A DNA stretch of 64,000 nt, from IMG/VR virus record IMGVR_UViG_3300025304_000053; one strand, given 5' to 3'. The notes below the pieces were generated by a model. The model ran no database searches, was not told the DNA's origin, and worked only from the letters and a program-made list of their open reading frames with translations. The position numbers were made by a program, and so were the translations under genes. This document shows positions 4,883-57,686 of the stretch, in pieces (the first letter of the stretch is position 1; each line of letters opens with the position of its first letter). The stretch is from a virus.

Positions 4883-4945
4883 CCCCCCAACCATCGCCAC
4901 CACAGAGAGCCGTGCGCCGACCAAGCGCACGGCGAGAGGAGACAC

Positions 4946-5266
4946 ATGACCAAGAGTAACGGAACGAAGCTGATCAACGCCATTGCGGCGAGAGAGCACG
5001 CCAACGACACCAAGCTCGGTACGCCATCAACTGACCCTATGCACGCCGCGCGCCGGCGGACCATCATGGAGCAGATGGCTGGCGGCAAGGGTTGGCGCAC
5101 CGCGCCGAAAGAACCAAAGCAGCGCGCCAACGGCCTCACGCGCGGAGAAATGAAGCGCATCAGGCGCCAGGTGGCCAATGAGCATGTCTCGGAGGTGCGC
5201 GCGCCGCAATTCATGCATAGCGCAGCTCGCCGTCGGTTTGAGGCGGAAATGGCGGTGGCGGCATGA
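4946..5266 (+). CDS. Hypothetical basic protein
   Basis: AGAGGAGAC RBS; ends in VAA. Confidence 0.7.
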   Translation: MTKSNGTKLINAIAAREHANDTKLGTPSTDPMHAARRRTIMEQMAGGKGWRTAPKEPKQRANGLTRGEMKRIRRQVANEHVSEVRAPQFMHSAARRRFEAEMAVAA

Positions 5267-5466
5267 CATCAGCAGACAAAGGCACCATCGCCGGTCTTTC
5301 GGCCATAGCATTCATCATCGTAACGCTCCTTGCCGCGGTAGCGGCTTGGATCACCCATGTTCTCGTCTGCATCAAGGCCGGCGCGTGGATATTGCTGGCC
5401 TTCGGCTGTTTCGTTGCGCCCGTCGGCGTCATCCACGGCATCGGTGTTTGGTTGGGGGCGTTCTGA
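5263..5466 (+). CDS. Small membrane protein
   Basis: Two hydrophobic segments; ATGA coupling. Confidence 0.65.
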   Translation: MTSADKGTIAGLSAIAFIIVTLLAAVAAWITHVLVCIKAGAWILLAFGCFVAPVGVIHGIGVWLGAF

Positions 5467-5660
5467 TGACCACCCGTCACCACATCCAGCCCAACCCGCT
5501 CGACTACGTGCCTGTCGATCACCTGCAGGCGCCGCCGTTGGCTCACCAAAAAACCGCATACACGCCGCCGGCCCTTCGTCGCGGGCTGACGGCTGCCGGC
5601 TGGTATCTCGCCATCGTGGCGGCCGGATTCATTCTCGCCGTCACTACCGGCATTATCTGA
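5466..5660 (+). CDS. Small membrane protein
   Basis: 3' part of ORF 5178..5660, coupled start; C-terminal TM segment. Confidence 0.6.
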   Translation: MTTRHHIQPNPLDYVPVDHLQAPPLAHQKTAYTPPALRRGLTAAGWYLAIVAAGFILAVTTGII

Positions 5661-5669
5661 GGAGACACT

Positions 5670-6470
5670 ATGTCAGTCTTTGACAAACTGAGATCCAGCA
5701 AGCGGAAAACGCCGCCCGTCCTTGCCCTCTACGGCATTGGTGGCATCGGCAAGACCACGCTTGCTGGCGAATTTCCAGATCCGCTGTACCTTCATACGGT
5801 CGGTGAAGAAACGCCAGTCGATCTCGACGTGCCTTCGATCGAGATCGAAAGCTACGACGAGATGATGAACGCTTTCGAGCACCTCTTGACGGAGGAGCAC
5901 GAGTTCAAGACCGTCATCATCGACAGCCTAGACGCCTTCGAAAAAATGGTGTGGGCCTACACCTGTGCCAGGATGAACTGGGACACGATCGACAGCAATG
6001 ACAAGGGTTCTCCCACCGCCTTCGGAAAGGGCTATCTAGAGGCCGACAGCGATTGGCTCGAATACATGGCAGCTATCCGAGCCGTGTCGCGCGCCGGTGT
6101 CCATGTCGTGCAGATCCTGCACAGCAAGGTGAAGGCGTTCAATGACCCGCTCGTCGATTCTTACGATCGCTACCGTCCTAAGCTCCAAGACCGTGCGACC
6201 GACATCATCATGGAAAAAAGTGATGCCCTGCTTTTCATGAGCAAGCGGACGTCGGTCAAGCAGATCGATAAAGGCTTCGGCAAGAAGGAGAACAAGGCGG
6301 AAGGAATGTCTGGGGCCGAGCGTATCATCTACACCGATGAGCGGGCCGGTTTTTTGGCGAAGAACCGGCTTAACATGCCACCGTCCATTCCCTTCAAGAA
6401 AGGTAGCGGCTTCACGACGCTATCTAAATACTTCTACACGCCGCACGCACCTGTCGAGGACGGCGAATAA
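5670..6470 (+). CDS. Sak4-like / AAA_24 P-loop ATPase (single-strand annealing)
   Basis: Walker A GIGGIGKTT, TVIIDSLD, G(F)GKGY motif, AKNR C-terminus. Confidence 0.85.
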   Translation: MSVFDKLRSSKRKTPPVLALYGIGGIGKTTLAGEFPDPLYLHTVGEETPVDLDVPSIEIESYDEMMNAFEHLLTEEHEFKTVIIDSLDAFEKMVWAYTCARMNWDTIDSNDKGSPTAFGKGYLEADSDWLEYMAAIRAVSRAGVHVVQILHSKVKAFNDPLVDSYDRYRPKLQDRATDIIMEKSDALLFMSKRTSVKQIDKGFGKKENKAEGMSGAERIIYTDERAGFLAKNRLNMPPSIPFKKGSGFTTLSKYFYTPHAPVEDGE

Positions 6471-6613
6471 TGTTCCACTCCGAACGCTGGTTCGCGTGGT
6501 TCCCCGTCACAACCCGCAACGGCGGCACGGTCTGGCTGCAGACCGTCATCCGCGAACGATCCGTAACGCCAAAGGCCACTACGCCCTGGCGCTACTACGC
6601 TACCACCAACTAA
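6470..6613 (+). CDS. Small hypothetical protein
   Basis: Translated by hand: MFHSERWFAWFPV...; TAATG overlap. Confidence 0.5.
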   Translation: MFHSERWFAWFPVTTRNGGTVWLQTVIRERSVTPKATTPWRYYATTN

Positions 6614-6634
6614 ACACCACAGAAGGAGACTAGC

Positions 6635-7258
6635 ATGGCCAGAATTGGCAACAGTTACCAGGCAGACTACGAGAACACCGAAAAGCAGGGCGGCGGCGGT
6701 GGCATCCTGCCGCACATGTATGCGCAGCTTCAGGCTGAGGCAATCAACCTCACTGAAACGCAGGACAAGAAGGGCTGGCAGGCTGAAATCACTTTCGAAG
6801 TTATCGAACCGGCAGAGTTCGCAAAGCGCAAGTTCTGGGCATATTGGACGATCGTCCATGCAGACGGTTTCCAGCACGGCGCCTACAAGTACGGCAAGCC
6901 CATGTTCGACCGATTCGGCTATGCGGTCGGCGAGGAAATCACCGCCGACACCGACACGGATGACCTGCTGTTCAAGTCCTTCACTGCCGAGATCGGCATC
7001 CAGATCGGCAACAAAAAGCCAGACGGCACCTTCTACAAGGACAAGAACCAGATCGAGCGGTTCTTCTTCACTCACGAAGGCGCCAAGGAGCCGGTTCCGG
7101 AGCTCGGCGTCATCGGTGACGGCACGCAGGGCAAGAAGCGCAACGAGCCAGCCGCAGCCAACGACAACCGGGCGCCGGCCGCCAATGACAACAGACAGCA
7201 GCAGGCGGCGGCAGCAAAGCCGGCTGGGTCGAAGCCGTGGGTGGCTCGTAAAGCCTAA
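6635..7258 (+). CDS. Phage ssDNA-binding protein (DUF669-like)
   Basis: Follows Sak4-like ATPase; OB-fold-like pattern; flexible tail ending KPW. Confidence 0.7.
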   Translation: MARIGNSYQADYENTEKQGGGGGILPHMYAQLQAEAINLTETQDKKGWQAEITFEVIEPAEFAKRKFWAYWTIVHADGFQHGAYKYGKPMFDRFGYAVGEEITADTDTDDLLFKSFTAEIGIQIGNKKPDGTFYKDKNQIERFFFTHEGAKEPVPELGVIGDGTQGKKRNEPAAANDNRAPAANDNRQQQAAAAKPAGSKPWVARKA

Positions 7259-7319
7259 CCAACACCACCGGCGGGCCGTCACCAGCGACCCGCCATTCGC
7301 CACCAAGAGGAGATCAGTA

Positions 7320-8171
7320 ATGGCTTATGAAGCCGAACGCAGACAGATCATGGATGCCTCGCCGCTCCGTTTTGACAATGCGTTTGTGGCCGGCGGCGCG
7401 GTAACTAGCGTCTTCACCGGCTCTAAGATCAACGACATCGATGTGTATTTTAAGTCGCGCATCGCTTTCGAGACAGGGGTCTATCAGGCCTATGAGGACG
7501 GCTTGTGGTGTGTAGCGGCCAGCAAGCGAGCCGTAACGTTCGCCGACCAGTCGAACCACATTGCGCAGCTGATGCACTTTGACTTCTTCCCGACCGCCGA
7601 GGCCATCTTTTCGGCGTTCGACTACACTATCGTCATGGGTGCGCTGGATTTAGATTCAGGCCCGAAGACCAAATGGAATCCGATAACCATTGGCTTCGAC
7701 GAGATCGGCGAAGAGCATCCCGAATCCGGCTTCATATTCCATCCAGACTTCCTGAAGCACAACAGCCAGCGCTTCCTGAAGTTCAACGCCGGCACTCGCT
7801 ACCCGCTCGCCTCCGCGACGCTAATCCTGAAATATCAGCAGCGCGGCTACACCATCGGCAAAGGCGACGTCATGAAGATCGCACTGGCAGTTCGTGGCGT
7901 GCGGATTGAGACGTGGGAAGACCTGAAAGACCAGATCGGCGGAGCCTACGGCGACAAGGTCGTGCTTGGCAACGAGGACAAGCCGTTTACGCTTGAGGCG
8001 GCGATTGATGCCTTGACGGTCGACGATACCAAGGACGAGCCGTGGGTACAACCGGCCAACGACAATATGCCGGGATCGCCTGAAGGCCTGCTTGCGCACA
8101 TAGCTGCTCTGAATGGCGTAGATTACGTGCCGCCATTGCTCGGCGATGACGGATGGCCAATGGCCGCCTAA
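7320..8171 (+). CDS. Nucleotidyltransferase-superfamily protein
   Basis: FVAGGAV...DIDVYF signature (GG..DxD); RBS AGAGGAG before ATG 7320. Confidence 0.65.
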   Translation: MAYEAERRQIMDASPLRFDNAFVAGGAVTSVFTGSKINDIDVYFKSRIAFETGVYQAYEDGLWCVAASKRAVTFADQSNHIAQLMHFDFFPTAEAIFSAFDYTIVMGALDLDSGPKTKWNPITIGFDEIGEEHPESGFIFHPDFLKHNSQRFLKFNAGTRYPLASATLILKYQQRGYTIGKGDVMKIALAVRGVRIETWEDLKDQIGGAYGDKVVLGNEDKPFTLEAAIDALTVDDTKDEPWVQPANDNMPGSPEGLLAHIAALNGVDYVPPLLGDDGWPMAA

Positions 8172-8224
8172 CCAACCTGCCTGCCGCTAACCACGGCAGG
8201 CACCACCACCAAGAGGAGACCCCC

Positions 8225-9280
8225 ATGCACTTGCTTATCGGCAAGAACGAACTGGCGCGCGTCATTTCCAGCGTCGCCAGAGTCGTCGAAAACCGCAATA
8301 CTATCGCCATCCTATCGTCTCTCCGCCTATCTGCGGAGGGTACCACCCTGACCGTCACCGGCACGGATCTCGACATCGTCGCCACCGCAACGGCACAGGC
8401 AGACGTCACCAAGTCCGGCGCCATCTGCGTCGATGCCAAGCTTCTCGGCGACATCGCCAAGAAGGCCGGCGGCGATATCTCCATGTCACTGGAAGGTGAC
8501 AATCTTATCGTGAAGTCGGGACGCAGTCGGTTCACGTTGCAGACGCTACCCGCCAATGAATTCCCGTCGCTGGATGGCGGCAAGTACGATGCGACGTTCG
8601 ACATCGACCTGGCGGGGCTGTTTGCGCCGGTGGCGTTTGCGATCTCGACGGAGGAAACGCGATACTACTTGAACGGCGTGTTCTTCAAGGGTACGGCTGA
8701 GGAATACACGGCGGTTGCGACCGACGGCCACCGGCTTTCGCGCCACGTCCAGCCAGGCGGTTACCCCTTCAACGGCATCATCGTTCCGCGTAAGACGGTC
8801 GGCCTTCTGCCAAAGGGCGTCGTGCAGGTGGCGGTCTCAGAAACCAAAATCCGTATCGTTGCCGGCGACCTAACGCTCACCAGCAAGTTGATCGACGGAA
8901 CTTTCCCTGACTACGAGCGCGTTATTCCGAAGAGCAATGACAAGGTTGTTGTCGTCGATCGCGATGCGATCATGAAGGCGGCGGACCGCGTCTCTGCGGT
9001 CAGCAGCGAGCGCGGCAGGGCGGTAAAGCTCACCGTCGCGCCTGGATCAATTTCGCTTCACGTCAGCAACCCTGATTCCGGCAGCGCTAACGATGAAGTC
9101 GAAGCGACATACAGTGGCGAGCCGATCGATATCGGATTCAACAGCCAATACGTGCGCGAAGTATTCGGCGTCTTGCCCGCAGGGGAGGTGACTATCGCCT
9201 TGGCGGATGCAGGTTCGCCGGCGCTGGTGACCGGCGGCAAGGAGGGGCTGACACTCGTAATTATGCCGATGCGCGTATGA
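8225..9280 (+). CDS. dnaN: DNA polymerase III beta sliding clamp
   Basis: GTDLD, STEETRYYLNGV, ATDGHRL, LIDGTFPDYERVIP, IGFNSQY, VIMPMR motifs. Confidence 0.95.
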   Translation: MHLLIGKNELARVISSVARVVENRNTIAILSSLRLSAEGTTLTVTGTDLDIVATATAQADVTKSGAICVDAKLLGDIAKKAGGDISMSLEGDNLIVKSGRSRFTLQTLPANEFPSLDGGKYDATFDIDLAGLFAPVAFAISTEETRYYLNGVFFKGTAEEYTAVATDGHRLSRHVQPGGYPFNGIIVPRKTVGLLPKGVVQVAVSETKIRIVAGDLTLTSKLIDGTFPDYERVIPKSNDKVVVVDRDAIMKAADRVSAVSSERGRAVKLTVAPGSISLHVSNPDSGSANDEVEATYSGEPIDIGFNSQYVREVFGVLPAGEVTIALADAGSPALVTGGKEGLTLVIMPMRV

Positions 9281-9573
9281 CGTCGGCTAGGGAGCAGGAA
9301 GGCGGGCCGTGGCGGCCCGCTAACGGCACTGACGGGATGGATTTTGATTTCCATTGGTGCAGCCATTGCCTGAACCGGAACGGTGACGGCGACTGGGAAG
9401 ACGAGTTTGGCAACGACATCGATGGCGCCTGCATCATTCAGGACTCGATGTTTTGGTCACCAGAGTTTCAGCCGGACGAACTCGTCATTCGTCATGGCAT
9501 GCCGTGGTGCACAGCGTTCCGCCAAGATCCAGCGCGTCCAGCACCGTGCTTATTCACCAAGGAGATGTTTTGA
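9277..9573 (+). CDS. Hypothetical Cys-containing protein
   Basis: PANGTDG..F...WC..C pattern; coupled. Confidence 0.65.
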   Translation: MTSAREQEGGPWRPANGTDGMDFDFHWCSHCLNRNGDGDWEDEFGNDIDGACIIQDSMFWSPEFQPDELVIRHGMPWCTAFRQDPARPAPCLFTKEMF

Positions 9574-9851
9574 TGCCGAAGTTCATGGTCGATTACACAT
9601 TCCAAGGACGATCAAGCCGCACTATCGTGGCCGAATCGAAAGAGGCCGCAGAGGCGATCGTCGAGGTCGAAGTCAATAAGGATGACTTCGACATTGATGC
9701 CGACAGCATCGACGATGTGAATTTCTATGTGCAGGAGATGCACCCTGTCACGCGAAATGGTAGGGAATTGTGGACTACTTACGTCCTCAAGGGTGACATC
9801 CGCTGCCCTCAGTCGGCGTTGGCTTCTTCGCCATTGTTTGCGGCCGCCTAA
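9573..9851 (+). CDS. Hypothetical protein
   Basis: TGATG coupling; ends in AAA. Confidence 0.65.
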   Translation: MPKFMVDYTFQGRSSRTIVAESKEAAEAIVEVEVNKDDFDIDADSIDDVNFYVQEMHPVTRNGRELWTTYVLKGDIRCPQSALASSPLFAAA

Positions 9852-10783
9852 TGGTCCCCATCCCCCGCCCGACATCATCAACCCAGCGCACCGTTCAAGA
9901 CGCGCTGGAAGCCCAAGGCGACGATTGGGAATCCGTTGGCGTGCCGGCGGGCGACATCGGCGTCGAGTGCGATCGAGCCGTCTGGCTTGCCTTCCGTCGC
10001 GCGTCTGTTCCCGAGGAAATCACATGGAAGAAGCGCCGCATCTTCGAACGTGGGAACATTGAGGAGGAACGGCTTCTCGACCTGCTCCGCCTGATCGGAG
10101 TTGAGGTGTGGGGCCAGCAAGAGCGCGTTCGTGCCGTTGGCGGACATCTGCGCGGGAAGATCGATGGACGCGCCCTTGGACTCATTGAGGCGCCGAAGAC
10201 TGAGCATGTCGTCGAATGCAAGTCATCAAACGAAGCAGCATTCAAGAAGGTAAAAAAGGACGGCGTAAAGATTGGCAAGCCTGAGCATTACGCAACATTC
10301 CAGTTCTACATGTACGGCCTTGGTATCGATCGCGTCTTCTACATGATGTCCAACAAGAACGACGAGGACTTGCATTTTGAGCGCGTCGAACTTGACCTTG
10401 AATATGCCATGCGGGCCGTTGCCAGGATCGAGCGTATCATCAATATGCCTGAACCACCCGGTCGCCTGTGCAGCAAACGCGATGACTTCCGAGGCATGTT
10501 CTGCCGCCAAGCCGAAGTGTGCTGGGGCGAGATTCGCGCGCGCTCGCACTGCAGGACTTGTTTGCATAGCACTCCGCTGATGGATGGCAATGCTGGATGG
10601 GACTGCAGCCGCTGGTCCAAACCGCTCTCGCTGGTCGAGCAAGACGCCGGCTGTCCGGCGATGCTGTACATCCCATCACTGATGGTCGGATGGGAGCAGG
10701 TGGATTGCGACGAGGAAAACGAGACGATTACCTACAGGTCACCGAACGGTGACATTTACGTTGACGGCGCCACCACCGCCTAG
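9851..10783 (+). CDS. Cas4-like / PD-(D/E)XK exonuclease
   Basis: FERGN..E, GKIDG, ECKS, Q..YM and C-terminal Cys cluster. Confidence 0.8.
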   Translation: MVPIPRPTSSTQRTVQDALEAQGDDWESVGVPAGDIGVECDRAVWLAFRRASVPEEITWKKRRIFERGNIEEERLLDLLRLIGVEVWGQQERVRAVGGHLRGKIDGRALGLIEAPKTEHVVECKSSNEAAFKKVKKDGVKIGKPEHYATFQFYMYGLGIDRVFYMMSNKNDEDLHFERVELDLEYAMRAVARIERIINMPEPPGRLCSKRDDFRGMFCRQAEVCWGEIRARSHCRTCLHSTPLMDGNAGWDCSRWSKPLSLVEQDAGCPAMLYIPSLMVGWEQVDCDEENETITYRSPNGDIYVDGATTA

Positions 10784-10805
10784 ACCACCACAAGAGGAGA
10801 TCACG

Positions 10806-11003
10806 ATGACCAGCAAAGACGGATGGACACGGAAGTTCAAGGGCAATGAGAACGGCGGAGCTCGCATATACATACATCCGGACGCTCTAGATAGCAGGGC
10901 GATCGTAGAAAACCAGAATGGGATTTGGTTCAACGGCAAGCAATTCTTCTTCATTGAAGATGCCAAACGTGCCGCGCTCGCGCACTTGCAGGTGTCGCGA
11001 TGA
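10806..11003 (+). CDS. Small hypothetical protein
   Basis: AGAGGAG RBS before ATG 10806. Confidence 0.6.
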   Translation: MTSKDGWTRKFKGNENGGARIYIHPDALDSRAIVENQNGIWFNGKQFFFIEDAKRAALAHLQVSR

Positions 11004-11488
11004 CCAGACCACCCGAATTCGACCGCGCCCTAGTCGCCTACCTGCCGGGCCTGCGTAAGCGGGCCGCGTTTGTTACGCATACCGAGGCCGAGGCGGAAGA
11101 ACTGCTGCAGGAGACAGTAGCAGACATGCTGGCATCCTGGCACCTGTGCCGCATGGAGACGTTCAAGATGTGGGCGCAACTCAAGATGTGGCAGGTTCAA
11201 TTCGACTTGCGGCAGAAGGCTGGCCGCATGAAGCGGCGGGCAGAATTCGTCGATGTGTCGCGCATCGAAGTTTCGACACCGCCGGTGCAAGAGCACGCCG
11301 TCGAGCTCGCGCAGGTCATCGCCAAACTCGCCAACATCCACAATGGCGACATCGTGCTGCGGCGCGCCTCTGGCGAACTACTGAAGGATATCGGCGCCGA
11401 GAACGGCACATCGCGGGAAAACATCCGGCAGAAAGAGGAGCGGGCCATGCGTCTGCTGCGACAGCGCACGGGGAGGGTTGCGGCATGA
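11000..11488 (+). CDS. ECF sigma70-like protein 1
   Basis: Region-2-like YLPGLRKRA...AEELLQET and region-4-like HTH GTSRENIRQKEERAMRLLR. Confidence 0.7.
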   Translation: MTRPPEFDRALVAYLPGLRKRAAFVTHTEAEAEELLQETVADMLASWHLCRMETFKMWAQLKMWQVQFDLRQKAGRMKRRAEFVDVSRIEVSTPPVQEHAVELAQVIAKLANIHNGDIVLRRASGELLKDIGAENGTSRENIRQKEERAMRLLRQRTGRVAA

Positions 11489-12012
11489 CCAACGCACCCG
11501 CCACCACCCCAGCCAACGACAACAAACCCACCGCCGCAAGGCCTGCATCCTTCGACGACCGCATCATCGCCTATCTTCCAGGCCTCTACCGCCTGGCCCG
11601 CAAACACGGCCGCCGCGGTGACGCCCGCCACGATCTCGTCAACGACACGATCGTTTACGCCTTGGAACACTGGACCAACTTCCGCGAGGACGGCGGGCTT
11701 TGGAACTGGCTGTCCTGGCAGATGCGCGGCCTGGTGAGCAATGGTGGCAAGCGCGGCACGCTGCACATCGTTGATGACCGTGACGGGATGAAAGCCGCTC
11801 GCCATGTCATGGATCCGACCCAGCAGACGCAGGCCGAGCTTTCCGAGACGCTGCGTCGGTTGCGTGGCCGCGATGGCGCTGTCCTGCTGCGCCGCGCCAT
11901 GGGCGAAGAACTGCATGTCATTGCCGGCGAACTGGGAATTTCCACGGAGCGCGTGCGGCAGCTCGAGGCGCGTGAGCGTGCGCGGCTGCGCGAGATGGGG
12001 GAGGCGGCGTGA
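11485..12012 (+). CDS. ECF sigma70-like protein 2 (paralogue)
   Basis: YLPGLYRLA...DLVNDT...ALEHWTNF; IAGELGISTERVRQLEARERARLR. Confidence 0.75.
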   Translation: MTNAPATTPANDNKPTAARPASFDDRIIAYLPGLYRLARKHGRRGDARHDLVNDTIVYALEHWTNFREDGGLWNWLSWQMRGLVSNGGKRGTLHIVDDRDGMKAARHVMDPTQQTQAELSETLRRLRGRDGAVLLRRAMGEELHVIAGELGISTERVRQLEARERARLREMGEAA

Positions 12013-12690
12013 TGGAGGATCTGTTCGCCGCCAATCAGAACACGCGTGCTGAGGACTTTTGGGCTGGACTCGACCTCAACAAGCTCCCGAAAACATCAAA
12101 GGATGCCTCAAGCTTAGGTGTAAAGTTCTTCTACACTAGCGAAGAGTGCATCCATGGCCACGATTCCCCCCAAGTACACTGCTGGCGGCAGGTGTGTTGC
12201 ATGTACTAGGATGAGCTCTGCACGGCAACAGAACAAAGAATACAAAGGCAATAACAGAGCCGCAAGGGCAAATATACAAAGAGCCATTGCATCAATGGAT
12301 ATGAAGAAAACTTATGAACCGACTAGGCCCTGCAAGCATGGCCACCTGTTGAGGTATGTAAGCTCGAATAACTGCGTCGAATGCAGTATTAATACAGCAA
12401 AAAACCGCCGCGAAAAAGCTAAGGATGAAAGACTTGTAAGATTGTACGGAATAACATCGGCTGAACGAGAGGTAATGGCGGAAAACCAGAGTTTTAAGTG
12501 CGCTATATGCAAGGAACAATTTGCCGACAATCGGTCAATGCACGTTGATCATTGTCACTCGTCTGGCGCCGTTCGCTCGCTTCTTTGCTCTCCATGCAAT
12601 CAAGGTATCGGCCTCCTCAAGGAAGACCCGGCCATCATACGGGCTGCCGCCGACTACGTAGAATTCCACGCAGCGAGGCTCGCCGCATGA
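12009..12690 (+). pseudogene. Endonuclease VII-like (HNH) nuclease interrupted by a +1 frameshift at C6 (12166-12171)
   Basis: ORF 12009 ends ...CIHGHDSP and ORF 12154 continues KYTAGGRCVAC; C-terminus has CAIC...HVDHCH...RSLLCSPCN. Confidence 0.7.
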
Positions 12691-14468
12691 CCTTCGTTCC
12701 AAGATACTACCAAGTCGAGGCCGTCGACGCGATCTTCGACTACTGGCAGGACGAGCCAGGCCATCCGCTTGTCGACATGGCCGGCGGCTCTGGCAAGTCA
12801 GGCACCATGGCCATGGTCATAAAGCGCCTTATCGAAGGTTGGCCGGATATGCGCGTTCTGTCGTGCGTCCACGTCGAAGAGTTGGTCGGCGACAATTTTA
12901 AAGAATTCATCGGCCTATGCCCATTCGCCCCTGCGGGTATTTATGCCGCCAGCCTTGGGCGCAGAGATCGGCAAGCGCAAGTCATGTTCGCGCAATTGCA
13001 AACGGTCTGGGACAAGGCGCTGGAAATCGGCCACGTCGACGTCATGATCATTGACGAGGTACATCTTGTGCCGAACGACGGCAACACGATGTATCGCAAG
13101 CTGATTGCGGCTCTTATGGCCATCAACCCTGACATGAAACTGGTCGGTTTCACCGCAACCCCATATCGTCTCGATTCTGGCCGACTTGACGAAGGTGAAG
13201 ACCGTCTTTTCGATTGCGTGGTCTATACCTACAGTCTGGCGCAGGGCATTGAGGACGGATACCTTTCCCGCCTCACCAGCAAGCCGGTTGAGACACGGTA
13301 CGACATGACAGGCGTGCATCGTCTTGGTGGCGACTTCAAGAAGTCCGACCTAGCCAAAGCGACCGACAAGGAAGAACTCACGAAGGCAGCCGTCGCGGAA
13401 ATCATGGCCGCTGCTCACGCGGAGGACAGAGGAACTGCAGTTATTTTCTGCAACGGCATAGAGCACGCCACTCACGTTCGTGATGAAATCCGTCTATACG
13501 GCAAGTCGTGTGAGGTATTAAGCGGCAAGACGCCGAAGACTGAGCGCAGGAAGATCATTGCCGATCTGAAGGCTGGTCGCCTGTGGGGGTGCACCAACGA
13601 CAATGTACTTTCGACAGGCACAAACATACCGTGCATTGATCTTGTTGCCGATATGGCACCCACAGAAAGCACAAACCGTTATGTTCAGCGCGCAGTTCGG
13701 GGCACGCGTGTAGTCTGGCCTGCTGGCTTTAAGCCAGACGAACATGACGCTGACGAGCGCAAGGCTGCAATTGCGCGCGGCCCTAAACCTAACTGCCGCT
13801 ATATGAACTTTGCGGGCAACATCGAGCGACACGGGCCTGTGGATGCAGTCAACCCGAAGAAGCCAGGCGACGGAAAGGGTGAGGCTCCAATCAAGCTTTG
13901 CCCGACCGACACAGCCGACCGCACTGGGAAGTTTGGGTGCGAGGAAATCTGCGCCGCGAGCGCTAGGGTTTGCCCGAACTGCGACTATGAATTCGAGTTT
14001 GTCGAGAAGCCGGGCTTCACGGCGCGGCCGACCGATGTTGCGATTCTGGCGACCGTGGCCGAAGAGGATTGGCGAAAGGTAACGGATAGGAAGTTCTTCC
14101 ACCATCCAGGTAAAGACGGCAAGCCGGATAGCGTCAAAATCGTCTACATGGCGGGCTATACCGCGATCAACGAGTGGACCTGTCCGGCCCATAGTGGCTT
14201 TCCCAAGACCAAGGCAGACAAGTATTGGCGAGCACACGGGGGAAAGACACCGTTCCCTAAAACGCCACTGGAATGGCTTCAGCGGCAGGGAGAGTTGAAG
14301 GAAACCGCAGAAATATCAGTCGTTCCGAACAAGAAGTATTGGAACGTCGTTGACTTCAGGGTGGGTGAACACGCCGCCAACGACAATGACGAGCCGGCGG
14401 CGAATGATAACCGGCCAGCGGGTGACGAGGATTGGCGGGCGCTGCTGGACACGGATATTCCCTTCTGA
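12687..14468 (+). CDS. Superfamily 2 DNA helicase (RadD/UvsW-like)
   Basis: GSGKS, DEVH, TATPYR, Q..VRGTR, CP..C zinc motif. Confidence 0.9.
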   Translation: MTFVPRYYQVEAVDAIFDYWQDEPGHPLVDMAGGSGKSGTMAMVIKRLIEGWPDMRVLSCVHVEELVGDNFKEFIGLCPFAPAGIYAASLGRRDRQAQVMFAQLQTVWDKALEIGHVDVMIIDEVHLVPNDGNTMYRKLIAALMAINPDMKLVGFTATPYRLDSGRLDEGEDRLFDCVVYTYSLAQGIEDGYLSRLTSKPVETRYDMTGVHRLGGDFKKSDLAKATDKEELTKAAVAEIMAAAHAEDRGTAVIFCNGIEHATHVRDEIRLYGKSCEVLSGKTPKTERRKIIADLKAGRLWGCTNDNVLSTGTNIPCIDLVADMAPTESTNRYVQRAVRGTRVVWPAGFKPDEHDADERKAAIARGPKPNCRYMNFAGNIERHGPVDAVNPKKPGDGKGEAPIKLCPTDTADRTGKFGCEEICAASARVCPNCDYEFEFVEKPGFTARPTDVAILATVAEEDWRKVTDRKFFHHPGKDGKPDSVKIVYMAGYTAINEWTCPAHSGFPKTKADKYWRAHGGKTPFPKTPLEWLQRQGELKETAEISVVPNKKYWNVVDFRVGEHAANDNDEPAANDNRPAGDEDWRALLDTDIPF

Positions 14469-14470
14469 TC

Positions 14471-14499
14471 TTGACAAATTTGTAAAAACATACTATGGG
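14471..14499 (+). promoter_or_regulatory. Operator A/promoter upstream of rtcB
   Basis: TTGACAAATTTGTAAAAA; TA at exactly 17 nt spacing. Confidence 0.75.
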
Positions 14500-14535
14500 T
14501 AAGCTACCAAAGCCACCACGACCAGAGGAGATTGC

Positions 14536-15708
14536 ATGACCTTCAAGATTTACGGTCAGCACGATGACCGCACCATCGGCCAGATGGAAACATGCATGAA
14601 CACGGGAAGCGCTGCAGCTGGAGTGCTTTGCGCCGACGGCCATCTCGGCTACGCGCACCCAATCGGCGGCGTGGTTGGTTACACCGACCACATCAGCATC
14701 AGCGGCGTCGGATTCGACATCGCGTGCGGCAACATGGCGGTGCGGTTAGACACCCCATATGCCGATATTTCCGCACACATCGGCACCATACTTCAAGACA
14801 TTCAGTCCGTCATTTCGTTCGGCGTTGGCCGAAAAAACGAAGAGCGCGTCGAGCATGAGTTGTTCGACCGAGACGACCTTTGGCGCGCTGCAGACGTGCC
14901 GGAACTTAAGTCCATGGCTCAAGGCCAGCTTGGCACGGTCGGGTCAGGCAATCATTATGTCGATATCTTCGAAGATGACGACGGCGCAACGTGGATCGGC
15001 GTGCACTTCGGATCTCGCGGTCTTGGCCACAAGATCACGACGAAATATCTGGGGATGGCCGGGGCGAAGGACGGCATGGAAGTGCCACCGGCGCTTATGC
15101 CAGCCGATAGCGACATGGGGCGCGGCTATCTCGCAGGCATTGAGCTTGGCGGGCTGTACGCCTACGCTGGCCGTGAATGGGTGGTCGAGCGGGTGCGCAA
15201 GATCATCGGTGGCGCCGTGACCTTTCAGGTTCACAACCATCACAACTTCGCTTGGCGCGAAACGCACGGCGGCGTCGATATGTGGGTCGTTCGAAAGGGT
15301 GCGACACCCGCCTTTCCGGGGCAGTTCGGATTCGTCGGCGGGTCTATGGGAGACGACGCCGTCATTCTGAGCGGCGTGGACAGCGCCGAAAGCGCTGCGG
15401 CGCTATACTCGACCGTTCATGGCGCCGGTCGCGTTATGTCTCGCACGGAGGCGCGCGGCCGGTTCGTGAAGGTGGATGGTAAGAAGATCCGCCAGCCTGG
15501 AAAGGTGCGCCACGACGAATGGCAGCAGTGGATCCGCGATAAGGGCGTGACCGTTTTGGGCAGCGATCTCGACGAGGCGCCGCAGGCATACCGCCGTCTG
15601 CCGGAGGTTCTGGCCGCACATTCGGGCACGATCTCTATTGAACACGTTCTGCATCCGCGCGGCGTCATCATGGCCGGGGCCTCTGAATTCGATCCGTATA
15701 AGGACTAA
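14536..15708 (+). CDS. rtcB: RtcB-family RNA ligase (3'-phosphate/2',3'-cyclic phosphate to 5'-OH)
   Basis: DGHLGY, GFDIACG, LGTVGSGNHY, HFGSRG, HNHHN, HGAGR, DEAPQAYR motifs. Confidence 0.93.
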   Translation: MTFKIYGQHDDRTIGQMETCMNTGSAAAGVLCADGHLGYAHPIGGVVGYTDHISISGVGFDIACGNMAVRLDTPYADISAHIGTILQDIQSVISFGVGRKNEERVEHELFDRDDLWRAADVPELKSMAQGQLGTVGSGNHYVDIFEDDDGATWIGVHFGSRGLGHKITTKYLGMAGAKDGMEVPPALMPADSDMGRGYLAGIELGGLYAYAGREWVVERVRKIIGGAVTFQVHNHHNFAWRETHGGVDMWVVRKGATPAFPGQFGFVGGSMGDDAVILSGVDSAESAAALYSTVHGAGRVMSRTEARGRFVKVDGKKIRQPGKVRHDEWQQWIRDKGVTVLGSDLDEAPQAYRRLPEVLAAHSGTISIEHVLHPRGVIMAGASEFDPYKD

Positions 15709-15713
15709 CCACC

Positions 15714-16106
15714 ATGACCGACCTCGAACACGCCATTGATATGGCTGTCAACTTGCACGCCGGTCAGGTGGACAAAAGCGGACAGCCATACATCCTGCAT
15801 CCACTTCGCGTCATGCTGTCGCTCGAAGGCGAGGTGGATATGATTGTCGGCATTCTCCACGACGTGGTCGAAGATTGCGGTGTTGGCCACGGCGACATCC
15901 TCGCTTTGTTCGGCGAAGATGTTTGGTCAGCCGTGATAGCGCTGACTCGCGACGAAGATGAATCTTACGAAGACTTCATTCGTCGGGCAAAAGCCAACGA
16001 AATAGCGCGGCGCGTCAAGATCGCCGACATCCTAGACAACATGCGACCCGGCGCCGAACACCTCTTGCCGCGCTACGAGAAAGCGCTAGCCATTCTACTA
16101 GCCTAA
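15714..16106 (+). CDS. HD-domain hydrolase of the SpoT/Mesh1 (small alarmone hydrolase) type
   Basis: HAGQVDKSGQPYILHP, LHDVVED, VKIADILDN. Confidence 0.8.
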   Translation: MTDLEHAIDMAVNLHAGQVDKSGQPYILHPLRVMLSLEGEVDMIVGILHDVVEDCGVGHGDILALFGEDVWSAVIALTRDEDESYEDFIRRAKANEIARRVKIADILDNMRPGAEHLLPRYEKALAILLA

Positions 16107-16157
16107 CCACCAGCGCCCCACCAAGCGCGACCACCACATCTCAGAGGAGACTAGACT

Positions 16158-16535
16158 ATGGGTTATTTTGACTGCGTGTCTTTCAGCACGCTGCTCGGCA
16201 AGACGCTGACCGAAGTCAGACAAGTGGGCAATGACGAAATCTTCTTCACCACTTCCGATGGCGACGCCTACAGGATGTATCATTCGCAGGACTGCTGCGA
16301 GTCTGTCACGATCGATGACATTGAGGGAGACCTGCAGTCGCTGGTCGGCAATCCTATCCTCGTTGCCGAAGAAGTCAGCAACAGCGATAGCCGCGATCCA
16401 GAGCAGGAATACGACTCATTTACGTGGACCTTCTACAAACTCGCGACCATCAAGGGCCACGTCGACATTCGCTGGTTCGGTTCGTCGAATGGCTACTATT
16501 CCGAGTCCGTTGACTTTGAGAAGGTGGCCGCATGA
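16158..16535 (+). CDS. Conserved phage protein
   Basis: QDCCESV and WFGSSNGYYSE motifs; strong RBS. Confidence 0.75.
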   Translation: MGYFDCVSFSTLLGKTLTEVRQVGNDEIFFTTSDGDAYRMYHSQDCCESVTIDDIEGDLQSLVGNPILVAEEVSNSDSRDPEQEYDSFTWTFYKLATIKGHVDIRWFGSSNGYYSESVDFEKVAA

Positions 16536-17281
16536 CCGACACCTTCAACCCCACCGACATCGCCGGCCTTCCTCCCAAGGACCACAACCAACCGACTCCC
16601 AGCCCCTTTGACGAGATCCGCCAGGAAATCGAAGATCTCTTCGACGAGGCCAAAAACTTCTGTGACGGCGAGCCTATCGACTCTCCGGCACTGGCCGACG
16701 CCATCACGGCGCTGCACGACCGCATCCACGCGGCAGGCCAGCGTGCCGACACGCTGCGGACAGAGGAAAAGAAGCCGCTCGACGACCAGATCGCTGCGAT
16801 CCAGTCGCGCTACCATCCGCTCATCGGTAACACGAAGGCAGGCAAGGGCAAGGTTGTTCTCGGCAAGGAGGCGTGCCAGTCGCTCCTGACGCCGTGGCGC
16901 GCTCGTGTCGCCGCAGAAAAAGCCGCAGAAGCCGCGGTCGTAGCTGCAAAGGCAGAAGCCGCGCGACAGGCAGCGCAGGAGGCCATCCGCGCCTCGTCGG
17001 GTAATCTTGCCGCCCGCGAAGAAGCCGAAGAACTGCTCGCCGGCGCCAAGAAGCTGGAGAAGGCCGCCAACCGTGCCGAGAAGGCGGCGACGACCGGGAC
17101 GGGGTTGCGGACGGTGTACGACGTGACACTGGTAGACGAGGAGGCGGCCATGGACTGGCTGTGGGCTCGTGCCAAGGCGGAGGTGCTCGCTGTCGCCCAG
17201 CGCAACGCCGAGGAGGTTGTGCGTGGTGGGGCGCGCGCGGTGCCTGGGTTCAAGGTTGAAGAGCGGAAGGTGGCGCGGTGA
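16532..17281 (+). CDS. Coiled-coil phage protein
   Basis: Ala/Glu/Lys-rich helical ORF, ATGA coupled. Confidence 0.7.
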   Translation: MTDTFNPTDIAGLPPKDHNQPTPSPFDEIRQEIEDLFDEAKNFCDGEPIDSPALADAITALHDRIHAAGQRADTLRTEEKKPLDDQIAAIQSRYHPLIGNTKAGKGKVVLGKEACQSLLTPWRARVAAEKAAEAAVVAAKAEAARQAAQEAIRASSGNLAAREEAEELLAGAKKLEKAANRAEKAATTGTGLRTVYDVTLVDEEAAMDWLWARAKAEVLAVAQRNAEEVVRGGARAVPGFKVEERKVAR

Positions 17282-17610
17282 TGGCATATTACCTCTACGA
17301 CCCGGGTGACTGCGACTCGACGGAGCACGCTTCACTTGCCGACGCCATGAAGGCCGGCAATGACCTTATCGCCATTTACCGCGACCAATGCGACCCGGAA
17401 TGGCCTGAATATGTCGAAGACATCGCTATCTATGAAGGCGAGAAACATTCCGATGATTGCGGCGGAAGGCTTGTTGCTCGGTCCGTCACATGCGACCGAA
17501 TCGAGCGGCCTGACGACGTAGACGAGGAGGGATATTCTCCGTCCGAAGACAAGTGGTTCGACCAAGTGGACTTCTACTGCGACTACAAGATGGAGCTTGC
17601 CAATGTTTGA
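17278..17610 (+). CDS. Acidic hypothetical protein
   Basis: Coupled ORF in operon. Confidence 0.6.
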   Translation: MMAYYLYDPGDCDSTEHASLADAMKAGNDLIAIYRDQCDPEWPEYVEDIAIYEGEKHSDDCGGRLVARSVTCDRIERPDDVDEEGYSPSEDKWFDQVDFYCDYKMELANV

Positions 17611-18315: not shown

Positions 18316-18383
18316 CGCGCAGTTGGCCTTCGACACCACCACACCATAGCGCCACCACAGCGAAGACATAAGAGGAGACCACC

Positions 18384-21502: not shown

Positions 21503-21558
21503 CGTGGTGCTCCTTGGTTGGTGACATCATTTGTAAAACATCCGCGCATGTCTGTCAA

Positions 21559-21574
21559 TTGACAAATTTGTCAA
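21559..21574. promoter_or_regulatory. Operator A, perfect palindrome
   Basis: TTGACAAATTTGTCAA between divergent genes. Confidence 0.8.
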
Positions 21575-21594
21575 AATTGTAATGAGGAAATGGA

Positions 21595-51986: not shown

Positions 51987-52067
51987 TTAAGCATCGGCCA
52001 CCAACCGATGCGGCCACCAACCGCCATGCGCTCACCGGCGCCACACCACACCAGCAGAGGAGGCCGT

Positions 52068-54578: not shown

Positions 54579-54582
54579 TGCT

Positions 54583-54774: not shown

Positions 54775-56015
54775 CCACACCACCACTCACCGACGAACAA
54801 CTCGACGAAGCCGTCGCCGCCCTCAAGGAACACGGCAGCCAGGTCGCAGCCGCATCCGCCCTTGGCCTCGCGCGGTCTTCTTTCCAGAACCGCCTCAGAC
54901 GGGCGGCCGAACGCGGGATGCTTGGCGTTAAGCCGGTGTTGCCGGGGTTCCGCATCAGCCAGGTGACCTCCACGCCGAATGGTGACTTCGTCCAGCAGAA
55001 GCCGGAGCGCGGCGAAGAGTGGGCGCTGCCCGACGGCCATAGCGTCAAGGGCGTCTCGGCGCTCGTCGATGCGGAAGGGCGGACGATTCAGCAATGGATC
55101 AAGACGAAGGAAGAGCCGTCGGCCGTCGATATCGCCGCGATGCTTAAGTCGGCATTCGACGACGTTGCGCCAGCTGAGCCCATTCCAGCACCTCTCGTCT
55201 CGGAAGATGACCTTCTGACGCTCACGCCCCTCGCTGACTTCCATGTCGGTCTCTTCGCGTGGCATCGCGAAACCGGCGCGAACTGGGATCTGTCGATCGC
55301 CGAGCGAGTTATCGGTTCCGCTCTCGACGACTTGATTGCCAGAACTCCGCCGAGCGGTCATGCCATCGTTTTGGGCGGAGGCGATCTGCTCCACAGTGAT
55401 TCTAACGAGAACAAGACGGCAAAGTCTGGCAACGTCCTTCAGGTCGATGGGCGTTACCAGAAGGTGCTGATGACCGCCTGCAGGCTGGTCGTGCGCGCCA
55501 TTGACGCCAACCTCGCCCGCCACGGTCACGTGACCGTCCGTGTCTTGCCAGGCAATCACGACGAACACGCATCAGTCGCCGTCGCCTATTTCCTTCTGGC
55601 TTGGTACCGCAACGAGCCGCGGGTGACTGTCGACGTAGACCCGTCGCTGTTCTTCTGGTTCCGCTTCGGAAAGGTGCTGCTCGGGGCGACGCACGGCCAC
55701 ACCGTCAAGCTCAAAGATATGGCCAGTATCATGGCCCACCGCCGCGCTGAAGACTGGGGCGCGACGGTCCACCGGTTCATTCACGGGTTCCACATCCACC
55801 ACTCGAGCAAGTACGCGACAGAAGGCAATGGCGTGATTTCGGAATCGCACCAGACGCCTACGCCGCAGGACGCTTGGCACTGGGGCGCCGGCTTCTTGTC
55901 CGGTCGGTCGATGCAGGCGATCTCGTATCATCGCGAGTTCGGGGAAGTTTCGCGCGTGCGGGTCGCCATGATGGATGCGGCCAATGACAACGTGCCGTCG
56001 CGAGCGGCCGCGTGA
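54771..56015 (+). CDS. Calcineurin-like metallophosphoesterase with N-terminal HTH
   Basis: DFH, GGDLLH, GNHD, HGH, GFHIHH motifs. Confidence 0.85.
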   Translation: MTTPPLTDEQLDEAVAALKEHGSQVAAASALGLARSSFQNRLRRAAERGMLGVKPVLPGFRISQVTSTPNGDFVQQKPERGEEWALPDGHSVKGVSALVDAEGRTIQQWIKTKEEPSAVDIAAMLKSAFDDVAPAEPIPAPLVSEDDLLTLTPLADFHVGLFAWHRETGANWDLSIAERVIGSALDDLIARTPPSGHAIVLGGGDLLHSDSNENKTAKSGNVLQVDGRYQKVLMTACRLVVRAIDANLARHGHVTVRVLPGNHDEHASVAVAYFLLAWYRNEPRVTVDVDPSLFFWFRFGKVLLGATHGHTVKLKDMASIMAHRRAEDWGATVHRFIHGFHIHHSSKYATEGNGVISESHQTPTPQDAWHWGAGFLSGRSMQAISYHREFGEVSRVRVAMMDAANDNVPSRAAA

Positions 56016-56725
56016 CCATTCACTACCACGGAACGCCGCTCACGCCGCGAGCCGAGCTTGAAAAGATGAGGGGCAAGCACCTTTGCGTGTCCTTCGCCAA
56101 TCCCGGCGATGCTGACTGGTGCCTAGCGAACGCTCAGTCGGTACTTTGGGATAATGGCGCTTACGTCTTCTACAGCAGCGGCAGGCCGATACTCAACTGG
56201 TCCAAGTTCTACATCTGGGTTGAGCCAAGGTTGGGTCACCCGCATTGGGCTGTGGTTCCTGACGTTATTGGCGGTGGGGTGGAAGACAACCTGGCGCTGA
56301 TCAAGCAATGGCCATTCCGTAAGGAACTTGCTGCTGTCGTTTGGCACCTAGACGAGCCAATCGAACATCTCATCGCGTTGGTGGAGATGGGCTTCGGTAA
56401 AATATGTTTCGGGTCGGCCGGGGCATATTGGCAGGTCGGCTCCGAAAGGTGGGCAAGAAGAGTAGATGAGGCATTTAACGCTCTTATCCGTCACTTCGGC
56501 CACTTGCCTTGGATTCACATGCTTCGAGGCCTAGCGGTATGCGGTGACATCTGGCCGTTCGCCAGCGCGGACAGCACGAACGTTGCCAGGAACTTCAAAA
56601 ACAAGGGCAACGAGGTTTGCCCTGAAAGAATGGCGCGGCGTATCGACGCCGTGCAGAGCCCAATCAAGTGGGTAGATAGAACCGCCAACCACCACAGAGG
56701 AGACCTATTCGATGTCGCAGCTTGA
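56012..56725 (+). CDS. Putative TGT/DpdA-like transglycosylase
   Basis: DNGAY (cf. DSG(G/A)F), VVPDVIG, HMLRG, SADST; upstream of a VUT transporter. Confidence 0.5.
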   Translation: MTIHYHGTPLTPRAELEKMRGKHLCVSFANPGDADWCLANAQSVLWDNGAYVFYSSGRPILNWSKFYIWVEPRLGHPHWAVVPDVIGGGVEDNLALIKQWPFRKELAAVVWHLDEPIEHLIALVEMGFGKICFGSAGAYWQVGSERWARRVDEAFNALIRHFGHLPWIHMLRGLAVCGDIWPFASADSTNVARNFKNKGNEVCPERMARRIDAVQSPIKWVDRTANHHRGDLFDVAA

Positions 56726-57110
56726 GAAAACAATCTATTTGTGCGGGCCGATTAACGGCTGCACCGACGAGGAATGCAAGGACTGGCGCGAGTTCGTCAA
56801 GTCCAAGTGGGAAGGCAAGACGCTCGACCCGATGCGGCGCGACTACCGCGGCAAGGAAGATGAATCAGTCAAGGAGATTGTCGAGCTCGACAAGATCGAC
56901 GTCACCGATTCCGATGTCATCCTCGTCAACTACGACAAGCCGAGTGTCGGCACATCCATGGAAATCCTCTATGCCTTCGATCGCGGCAAACTCGTCGTCG
57001 TTGTAGCCAAGGAAGGCACGCGCATTTCCCCGTGGATGCGCTATCACAGCCACAAGATCGTCGGCTCATTCGAAGCAGCTATCGAGTTCGTGCGGGATTT
57101 CTACGCATGA
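56712..57110 (+). CDS. Nucleoside 2-deoxyribosyltransferase-like protein
   Basis: IYLCGP, D..DVTDSDVILV, SVGTSMEILYA. Confidence 0.8.
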   Translation: MSQLEKTIYLCGPINGCTDEECKDWREFVKSKWEGKTLDPMRRDYRGKEDESVKEIVELDKIDVTDSDVILVNYDKPSVGTSMEILYAFDRGKLVVVVAKEGTRISPWMRYHSHKIVGSFEAAIEFVRDFYA

Positions 57111-57631
57111 AGAAGCTGGCTCTCTTGATGGCGGCTTTTGCCGCCACGGTCCCCGCCGCCAACTGGCTTATCAGCAACGTCGGCACGGTCTGCATTCCAT
57201 CTGGCCCGTGCCTCATCCCAGTCGGATTCGGTTTAACCGCTCCGTCTGGCGTGTTGCTTGTAGGTCTGGGCTTAGTCTTGCGGGACATGGTGCATGAGGC
57301 TGGCGGCGTTCGCGCATCTATGCTGGCTATCGCTATCGGCGGAGTTCTGTCGGCGCTGTTCGCGCCTCCGGCTTTGATATTGGCTTCAATCGCGGCATTC
57401 ATCCTGGCCGAGTTGGCAGACCTTTTTGTTTATGCGCCACTGCGCGAGAAGCGCTTTGGGTTGGCCGTTCTGGCGAGTGGCGCAGTCGGTGCGGTGGTCG
57501 ACAGTGCGGTATTCTTGCTGCTGGCCTTCGGGTCTCTCGCTTTCATCGAAGGACAAATTCTAGGCAAGCTCTGGATGAGCCTACTGGCCTTCGCTTTTAT
57601 CGCATACCGGCGACGCGCTTTGCTCGCCTAA
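57107..57631 (+). CDS. VUT-family (YhhQ-like) queuosine-precursor transporter
   Basis: AANWL, LRDMVHE, ASIAAF..AELAD..VY, VDS.VF..LAF, GQILGK. Confidence 0.82.
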   Translation: MKKLALLMAAFAATVPAANWLISNVGTVCIPSGPCLIPVGFGLTAPSGVLLVGLGLVLRDMVHEAGGVRASMLAIAIGGVLSALFAPPALILASIAAFILAELADLFVYAPLREKRFGLAVLASGAVGAVVDSAVFLLLAFGSLAFIEGQILGKLWMSLLAFAFIAYRRRALLA

Positions 57632-57686
57632 ACCACCACCACCCGCCGGCCACCAACCGGCGGTCACCACCACAGAGGAGACTGAA

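Follow-up and report, generated by a model that had tools for sequence, protein, structure and literature searches.

A conserved sense-strand hairpin with an ACCA heptaloop stands before ribosome-binding sites in 16-3-like temperate phages of rhizobia

The viral sequence IMGVR_UViG_3300025304_000053 from IMG/VR, analysed here as one stretch of 64,000 nucleotides (nt; hereafter, the window), belongs to a temperate siphovirus or prophage of Rhizobiaceae that is distantly related to phage 16-3, the terL genes being 80% identical in nucleotide sequence. In this DNA and in that of related phages we identified a recurrent cassette, a hairpin with ACCA in its loop, each window copy of which has a stop codon or a promoter on its 5′ side and, on its 3′ side, a CA-rich tract that is followed by a ribosome-binding site of the AGAGGAGAC type. 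The cassette is real, conserved, strand-specific and phage-private. It is absent from Rfam (release 15, in which no family reached the gathering threshold across the whole window on either strand) and from the literature searched, which yielded nothing relevant on rhizobiophage stem-loops, 16-3 antitermination or the loop sequence. The existence, conservation, strandedness, covariation, phage specificity and geometry of this element are shown here; every functional step considered below is our inference.

Five strong ACCA-loop hairpins occur in the window, at 4909, 7270, 8178, 51991 and 57643, along with three weaker ones at 52010, 16113 and, on the minus strand, 599 (Table 1). RNA folding in contexts of about 95 nt recovered all five strong hairpins in the minimum-free-energy (MFE) or centroid structure, with the Shine–Dalgarno sequence (SD) unpaired. 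An initial annotation, made from the sequence of the window, had listed hairpins of this kind, and all were found where it placed them: those at 4909–4933, 7270–7294 (one mismatch) and 57643–57663 as described, the one it gave as an 8-bp stem at 8179–8201 with the same loop CTAACCA and a stem of 9 bp (8178–8202), and those at 52010–52024 and 16113–16128 as marginal copies with stems of 3–4 bp. Its remark that similar loops sit on different stems is true overall, except that three window copies have the 13-mer CGGCCACCAACCG in common, so that their inner stem is identical. The hairpin at 4909–4933 begins 26 nt past the stop codon of gene 3428–4882 and ends 2 nt ahead of the extended SD of gene 4946–5266. 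That at 51991–52011 lies at a predicted transcript 5′ end, with a TTGACA promoter at 51958, and the tandem layout at 52010 recurs in phage 16-3 with different stems.

A search with the sliding-clamp protein retrieved about 80 viral contigs, of which 53 non-identical loci are close relatives (clamp 57–69% identical); as many of these loci are kin, the counts that follow are of non-independent events. Among perfect hairpins with a stem of at least 6 bp and a 7-nt loop in the close relatives, those with an ACCA loop are found 94 times in the sense orientation and once in antisense, whereas the remaining 7-nt loops in the same count are distributed symmetrically (302 sense versus 395 antisense). 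At a minimum stem of 7 bp there are 82 ACCA loops, of which 75 measure exactly 7 nt and none has TGGT. A permissive scan, in which G·U pairs and one mismatch were allowed, proved too noisy for use. The initial annotation had proposed scanning related prophages with a covariance model, and our model (R1, built from the 37 copies in alignment A1) detected 108 copies at E ≤ 0.05 in 81 loci, every one of them on the sense (+) strand. In the window, the model returned five strong copies at 26–33.5 bits (E < 2e-4), all on the plus strand; all five belong to alignment A1 and match by construction, the informative part being the gap to the next match, a terminator-like hairpin at 16 bits. Stem positions are 90% paired, with double changes at nine of nine stem pairs, which in a set chosen for pairing shows stem diversity and is not independent proof.

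The site upstream of the clamp gene is defined by the gene and not by the motif. Here, the hairpin is present in nearly every close relative (the site orthologous to 8178–8202 is kept in about 50 contigs), with at least six different stems and the same type of loop. The initial annotation had made its proposal depend on conservation of the loop at homologous loci, and at these loci the loop has indeed been kept while the stems diverged. At positions of this site that depart from Watson–Crick pairing, G·U outnumbers A·C by 18 to 6, as expected for pairing in the sense RNA. Of the RNA-level signal for protein binding or processing that had been suggested, the RNA level is thus supported by the sense bias (94:1 and 108:0), the conserved loop on diverged stems, the excess of G·U over A·C and the fixed geometry.

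The loop itself is tightly constrained. Its logo reads C/U, N, A, C, C, A, A, with a shifted variant CTCACCA, and in 98 of 104 distinct copies it measures 7 nt (NNACCAA), position 2 being C in 42, T in 37, G in 12 and A in 7. The tetranucleotide ACCA occupies loop positions 3–6 or 4–7 and never begins at 1 or 2, whereas the CA-rich flanks would offer all four offsets at about 10% each, and U and G are allowed only at loop positions 1, 2 and 7.

The position of the hairpin relative to the neighbouring genes is similarly regular. An SD and a start codon follow 103 of 104 non-identical copies, the distance from the 3′ end of the hairpin to the SD being 9–17 nt (72 cases), 2–4 nt (15 cases) or, where a second small hairpin intervenes, 26–33 nt. 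On the other side, the distance from the upstream stop codon to the hairpin has its mode at 5–11 nt. In the SD-adjacent class, to which the copy at 4909 belongs, a long CA tract stands ahead of the hairpin, which then abuts the extended SD GAGAGGAG. The 12 nt upstream and 10 nt downstream of the hairpin are 77–79% A+C, the 3′ flanks consisting of 42% C, 37% A and 11% T. Judging from these spacings, the hairpin probably sits in the gap between a terminating and an initiating ribosome and is unwound by neither. At the 5′ edge, unrelated upstream genes share the ending GCCTAA(C/A)C, that is, an alanine codon, the stop and then the CA tract (4877–4885, 7253–7261, 8166–8174, 16100–16108 and 57624–57632, as well as in related loci), and CCTAACC is found five times on the plus strand and never on the minus strand, so that the stop codon itself may be part of the cassette's 5′ edge.

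CA tracts also precede SDs independently of the hairpin. The pattern CCAC-N0-16-AGGAGA has 27 matches at 15 leaders of the window, compared to 1.4 ± 1.1 in shuffled sequences, and all have the orientation of the gene that they precede, also at the gene on the minus strand that starts at 563, just as the initial annotation had stated for CCACCAC tracts before ribosome-binding sites; the leader at 21502 carries caccaaccaaggag. The occurrence of this leader, without the hairpin, at the major head and tail protein genes fits a strong-start signal.

The cassette is a property of the phage and not a host style of gene start. Host absence was assessed in the 5.5-Mb genome of Agrobacterium rosae, which carries a related prophage (L001), the only useful outcome of a contig search with the clamp protein that otherwise mostly gave host dnaN. 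All four covariance-model matches in this genome fall within about 50 kb of one contig, in the prophage, and 12 of 13 matches to CACCAC-N0-12-GAGGAGA lie within the same ~55 kb. In a sample of the host family, matches were found in at least 13 of 151 genomes, with part of the candidates scored, and multiple matches cluster within 3–50 kb. Moreover, phage 16-3 itself (NC_011103) carries four strong, unannotated copies in sense orientation, one each ahead of p046, p075, the clamp gene p081 and the methyltransferase gene p096, and a tandem hairpin pair in the 5′ untranslated region (UTR) behind the TTGACAAATTTGT promoter, the same promoter as in the window. The copy ahead of p075 is of the SD-adjacent class, and p074 is the 16-3 homologue of 3428–4882. 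The annotated start of 16-3 p081 (42583, in L161:42573–42660) falls inside the ACCA hairpin, and about 50 nt downstream come a CA tract, another hairpin, an AGAGGAGAC SD and an ATG; on this arrangement the p081 start is probably misannotated, the true one being the ATG after the SD.

More distant phages (L122, L124, L127, L131, L133, L135 and L137; clamp 44–60% identical) keep a hairpin at two orthologous sites, one upstream of the clamp gene and the other directly against the SD that follows the 3428-like gene; the flanking genes are homologous. Their loops are TTCG, TACG, GCGA, ATAC, ATGT and similar. Because tetraloop hairpins occupy the same sites in these relatives, sequence comparison suggests that a stable hairpin came first, whatever its loop, and that the ACCA heptaloop arose in the 16-3-like subclade. 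Within that subclade, the loop appears to be under purifying selection of its own, since the stems have diverged to saturation and the loop has not, and since a heptaloop is less stable than the tetraloops it replaced.

Table 1. Cassette hairpins, CA-tract leaders and candidate partner genes (window positions unless a related locus is named)
Position	Strand	Feature	Basis
4909–4933	+	ACCA-loop hairpin, 9 bp, loop CGACCAA	Covariance model 29 bits, folding
7270–7294	+	ACCA-loop hairpin, 9 positions with one C/A mismatch, loop TCACCAG, before gene 7320–8171	26.3 bits, folding
8178–8202	+	ACCA-loop hairpin, 9 bp, loop CTAACCA, before sliding-clamp gene 8225–9280	33.5 bits, folding
51991–52011	+	ACCA-loop hairpin, 7 bp, loop CCACCAA	26.4 bits, folding; 16-3 counterpart
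52010–52041	+	Two more short hairpins in the same 5′ UTR: 3–4 bp stem with CCACCAA loop; 5-bp stem with CACC loop	Weak on their own
57643–57663	+	ACCA-loop hairpin, 7 bp, loop CCACCAA, between 57107–57631 and MazG-like gene 57687–58253	33 bits, folding
16113–16128	+	Marginal copy, 4-bp stem, 8-nt loop, before 16158–16535	16107–16134 scores 10 bits, E = 4
599–616	−	Marginal copy, 6 bp, sense loop GCACCA, leader of gene 138–563	Folding z = −3.1
570–595	−	CA tract + AGAGGAGA SD, gene 138–563	Pattern search
2791–2809	+	CA tract + SD leader without hairpin, gene 2814	
6617–6629	+	CA tract + SD leader, gene 6635	
7300–7313	+	CA tract + SD after the 7270 hairpin	
8203–8219	+	CA tract + SD after the 8178 hairpin	
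10785–10800	+	CA tract + SD leader, gene 10806	
14513–14531	+	CA tract + SD leader, rtcB (14536)	
16131–16150	+	CA tract + SD leader, gene 16158	
18355–18378	+	CA tract + SD leader, DNA methyltransferase gene (18384)	
24755–24773	+	CA tract + SD leader, gene 24779	
25356–25365	+	CA tract + SD leader, gene 25371	
32620–32642	+	CA tract + SD leader, major head protein gene, no ACCA hairpin	
38282–38295	+	CA tract + SD leader, major tail protein gene, no ACCA hairpin	
56689–56703	+	CA tract + SD leader, gene 56712	
57667–57681	+	CA tract + SD after the 57643 hairpin	
3428–4882	+	Gene directly upstream of the SD-adjacent hairpin, repeated KOW/SH3-like barrels, candidate partner only	AlphaFold model
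L001:~2354, L085:~3442, L103:~2629, L107:~304, L113:~2723, L132:~2855		C-terminus like the bL12 C-terminal domain, in related prophages	

A rough gene call gave 88 genes in the window, nearly all on the plus strand, comprising two repressor modules, an early replication and recombination operon, RtcB, two sigma factors, DNA methyltransferases, a late structural block and a nucleotide-modification operon. The two small, adjacent sigma factor genes at 11000–12012 are of the sigma-70 family (extracytoplasmic-function-like), correspond to p086/p087 of 16-3 and presumably drive late transcription. A promoter or operator box, TTGACAAATTTGT(A/C)AAA, is repeated at 1420, 2708, 14470, 21540–21575 and 51958, is followed 17 nt later by a −10-like hexamer at 14470 and 51958, and also stands before the protease operon of 16-3. 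In the minus-strand leader of gene 138–563 (545–640), the anti-SD UUCUCCUC pairs with the SD AGAGGAGA and encloses two small hairpins, the marginal copy at 599–616 being nested within this structure. Its predicted fold (MFE −36.5 kcal/mol, z = −3.1, with 2 of 200 shuffles equally good) looks like a translational off-state for the gene downstream of a CI-like repressor.

The most likely reading of the cassette, which we put forward tentatively, is that of a cis-acting mRNA leader for translation and mRNA stability on the sense transcript of repressor-controlled early operons, a loop-specific protein regulon being its main rival. The full leader would comprise a stop codon or transcript start, a short tract of A and C only, a G+C-rich hairpin of 7–9 bp with an NNACCAA loop, a second A/C tract, the AGAGGAGAC SD and the start codon. 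In such a leader, the hairpin would fold in a ribosome-free gap, placed 5–11 nt past the stop and so just outside the terminating ribosome, and ending 9–17 (or 2–4) nt before the SD, just outside the initiating 30S subunit. Fixed there, it could block exonucleases, cap the downstream segment and prevent base pairing between the ribosome-binding site and coding RNA upstream. The flanks, which cannot pair because they consist of A and C only, with almost no U, would stay open for loading of the 30S subunit and S1 in a standby-like manner and would make poor RNase E substrates. The stem function would be ancestral, and the ACCA heptaloop most likely adds a docking point for a putative factor. The initial idea of a translational enhancer or protein-binding site therein remains plausible.

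Several points weigh against a cis-acting leader. Host genes do without the cassette, although an optimal start signal should be used there too, and this absence argues for a phage-specific reader rather than pure cis physics. The SDs are predicted not to be occluded, so that classical standby would not be needed, and stability alone is no explanation for a 7-nt loop that is less stable than the tetraloops of the relatives. Besides, many of the loci are related and their counts are not independent, and, as one stem type can stand next to many unrelated genes, part of the apparent conservation is recombination spread.

Alternatively, the hairpin may be an operator for a dedicated RNA-binding protein, encoded by the phage or hijacked from the host, that reads the ACCA heptaloop and co-regulates five to eight early genes; although somewhat unlikely on present evidence, this is the explanation that competes most closely with a leader. 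Such a protein could repress translation later in infection, following a logic like that of T4 RegA, activate translation or shield the RNA from Rho. Conservation of the loop and its length on stems saturated with changes, the absence of the cassette from host genes and the confinement of ACCA hairpins to repressor-controlled early operons all accord with an operator, as does the presence of other loops at the same sites outside the subclade, which is expected if the reader arose in one lineage. Furthermore, a protein with multiple KOW/SH3-like barrels is encoded directly upstream of one copy. Against this, the loops within one genome differ (CGACCAA, TCACCAG, CTAACCA and CCACCAA), and recognition would have to be loose. 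Family scans of neighbouring proteins identified no RNA-binding protein among the candidates; Pfam, NCBIfam and PHROG assigned no function to the neighbouring small proteins, including the very basic 106-aa product of 4946–5266, for which 10 homologues only were found. Whether early proteins and the motif occur together was checked by tblastn with the window proteins in the 81 loci; every candidate tracks phylogeny, which made the comparison uninformative.

The heptaloop and the CA/SD leader may together form the address label of a phage-private system of translation or transcription–translation coupling, which we regard as speculative and rather unlikely. Such a label would give early mRNAs privileged ribosome loading or protection from Rho, and, being read by a phage factor, it would never be used by host genes. 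One candidate reader would be the multi-KOW-like protein encoded beside the SD-adjacent copy. This protein (3428–4882) has no Pfam or NCBIfam match, but its homologues match SH3-like Pfam families, and its AlphaFold model (mean predicted local distance difference test score 80.6) is a string of small beta-barrels whose best PDB matches are to the multi-KOW region of Spt5 (E 5e-9 to 1e-6, probability 1.0), the template-modelling scores being low because the domains are flexibly linked; nucleic-acid binding is, on this model, conceivable. In six or seven related loci, the 3428-like protein ends in a motif of about 30 residues, AIKELRSITGxGLK..., which is absent from the window copy and scores close to the Pfam threshold against the factor-binding helices of the bL12 C-terminal domain. 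Phage proteins with bL12 domains are known (PMC6375957). We take the KOW protein and the bL12-like motif as a lead, not as evidence. Nearly all 3428-like proteins end in Ala-Ala. Other partners for the loop were considered as well. All complements of the TTGGTGG type in the window were listed, and none lies in a loop or plausible small RNA, most being the antisense of the cassette. Several ideas were weighed on paper and dropped as numerology, since any 5–7-mer finds such matches: base pairing of the loop with tRNA D-loops, the 790 region or the 3′ tail of 16S rRNA, an RNase P-type substrate of helix and NCCA, mimicry of an anticodon loop or T-loop, and a TGT/DpdA substrate, for which the loop has no G.

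Processing punctuation, in which an endoribonuclease would cut in or beside the cassette and leave monocistronic pieces with a 3′ hairpin upstream and a CA leader downstream, comparable to the RNase III sites of T7, is improbable. Intercistronic position, stable structure and sense orientation would suit it, and the copy at a predicted transcript 5′ end fits a protective role. However, stems of 7–9 bp are too short for RNase III, flanks without U are poor substrates for RNase E, which prefers RN/WUU, and no nuclease candidate was found.

A nut/boxB-like role of the cassette, in which RNA polymerase would acquire a processive antiterminator there, had initially been suggested and is very unlikely. 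Like lambda nut sites, the hairpins lie in sense orientation in early operons of a temperate phage and keep their loop on stems that are free to vary; one copy (51991) is near a promoter, and the C-rich flanks are like the rut segments that flank lambda boxB. Nevertheless, lambda has one site per early operon near the promoter, whereas the cassette is intercistronic, numbers five to eight per genome and is tied to the SD, with three copies in the 2.8–24 kb operon, 2–5.5 kb from the promoter, and two sites in the 52–62 kb operon, of which only that at 51991 is promoter-proximal. The GNRA-like pentaloop of lambda is bound by the arginine-rich N peptide, whereas the loop here is the 7-nt NNACCAA; no N-like arginine-rich protein was recognized, and no boxA-like element was seen by eye in the flanks, no dedicated search having been made. 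Nor does the early operon hold an excess of terminators to be read through: 14 terminator-like sites were counted in 2600–22000 against 18.4 expected from shuffles, Rho-dependent terminators not being predictable.

Canonical intrinsic terminators (GC stem and T run) mark operon ends at 24464–24493, 25589–25611, 39628–39645 and 61807–61830, with the loops GAAA, ACTCCCA, CACCCC and AGTCACAC, unlike NNACCAA. The cassette itself was rejected as an intrinsic terminator, its 3′ flanks containing 11% T and no U run, whereas the true terminators of the window (24464, 39628 and 61807) have T runs and other loops. The resemblance of the loop to a tRNA 3′ end, which the initial annotation had linked with RtcB, found no support either, and a tRNA-like or CCA-end mimic was dismissed on the same grounds: ACCA is enclosed in a closed loop, the 3′ flank is not consistently NCCA, and, in contrast to an anticodon-type loop with its U33 and purine at position 37, loop position 2 is mixed.

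It is also very unlikely that the cassette works as DNA, its inverted repeats and CA/SD tracts being recombination linkers between modules or single-strand replication signals. One stem type can adjoin as many as 10 different gene clusters on the upstream side and 8 on the downstream side, where partners are somewhat fewer (24 versus 40 extra). Across all cassette sites of L081–L132, copies with the same stem type have many non-homologous neighbours on either side and fall at mosaic junctions, and in L106 an apparent crossover lies inside the CA tract. We regard these junctions as a consequence of conserved short sequences at gene borders and not as the primary function, since a DNA linker needs neither an asymmetric loop nor G·U-tolerant stems, nor a fixed SD spacing; moreover, the stems differ in sequence, so that no single DNA-binding protein could read them all. 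Finally, that the loops are alike merely as a functionless by-product of A/C-rich intergenic composition is hardly credible and already disfavoured: although 37% of 7-mers in the A+C-rich flanks contain ACCA, composition does not account for the fixed register, the constant 7-nt length, the restriction of U and G to three loop positions, stems that diverged far more than the loop, or relatives with equally CA-rich flanks that use tetraloops.

Because the sister phages with tetraloops at the same sites are a natural control, and because the cassette is present in the classical, genetically tractable pair of 16-3 and Sinorhizobium meliloti, the question of how a temperate phage marks its own mRNAs for expression becomes directly testable. 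In practical terms, the covariance model can serve to annotate 16-3-like prophages and to correct gene starts, such as that of the 16-3 clamp, and the cassette offers a compact, host-orthogonal expression leader for rhizobia.

In its behaviour, the cassette resembles the start-associated sequences and extended start-associated sequences (SAS/ESAS) of cluster K mycobacteriophages, known since 2011, and it adds a second, unrelated case of phage-specific start signals with a clearer anatomy, namely a covarying stem, a selected loop and fixed spacing. Both are conserved, phage-specific sequences that include the SD, keep one orientation and stand before some of the genes only, mostly non-structural ones with unusually long intergenic gaps; the host genome has next to none of them, and in both an inverted repeat lies just upstream at about half of the sites. 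The SAS is a 13-bp GGGATAGGAGCCC at gene starts, the 17-bp inverted repeats are conserved in sequence without compensatory changes, and the authors favour a DNA-binding protein (PMC3203893); as of 2025, the function remains without an experimental account (PMC12699233). By contrast, our cassette points to RNA, with stems that vary, covary and tolerate G·U and with conservation residing in the loop. The two systems have unrelated sequences and hosts of unrelated phyla, and here the CA/SD leader also serves the major head and tail genes. Membership in SAS/ESAS was therefore rejected, given a different sequence and varying yet paired stems, and the resemblance is one of behaviour only.

By analogy, the nearest mechanistically studied systems appear to be S1-dependent standby sites, CA-rich standby tails and T4 intercistronic hairpins. 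Standby sites likewise have, ahead of the ribosome-binding site, a 5′ stem-loop and a single-stranded stretch of little sequence content, as in the tisB +42 mRNA (PMC6690012) and CA-rich 5′ tails (PMC5934652). However, standby rescues a structured ribosome-binding site, whereas the SDs here are predicted to be open except in the minus-strand leader 545–640, and the standby stem-loop has no conserved loop and is not a repeated, phage-wide cassette. The C(UUCG)G hairpins of phage T4, reportedly described by Tuerk et al. in 1988, are likewise very stable, short hairpins between the cistrons of polycistronic phage mRNAs, and the distant relatives studied here have exactly such UUCG or UACG loops at orthologous sites. 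The 16-3-like subclade differs in having exchanged the tetraloop for a 7-nt ACCA loop, with A/C-only tracts and a fixed distance to the SD.

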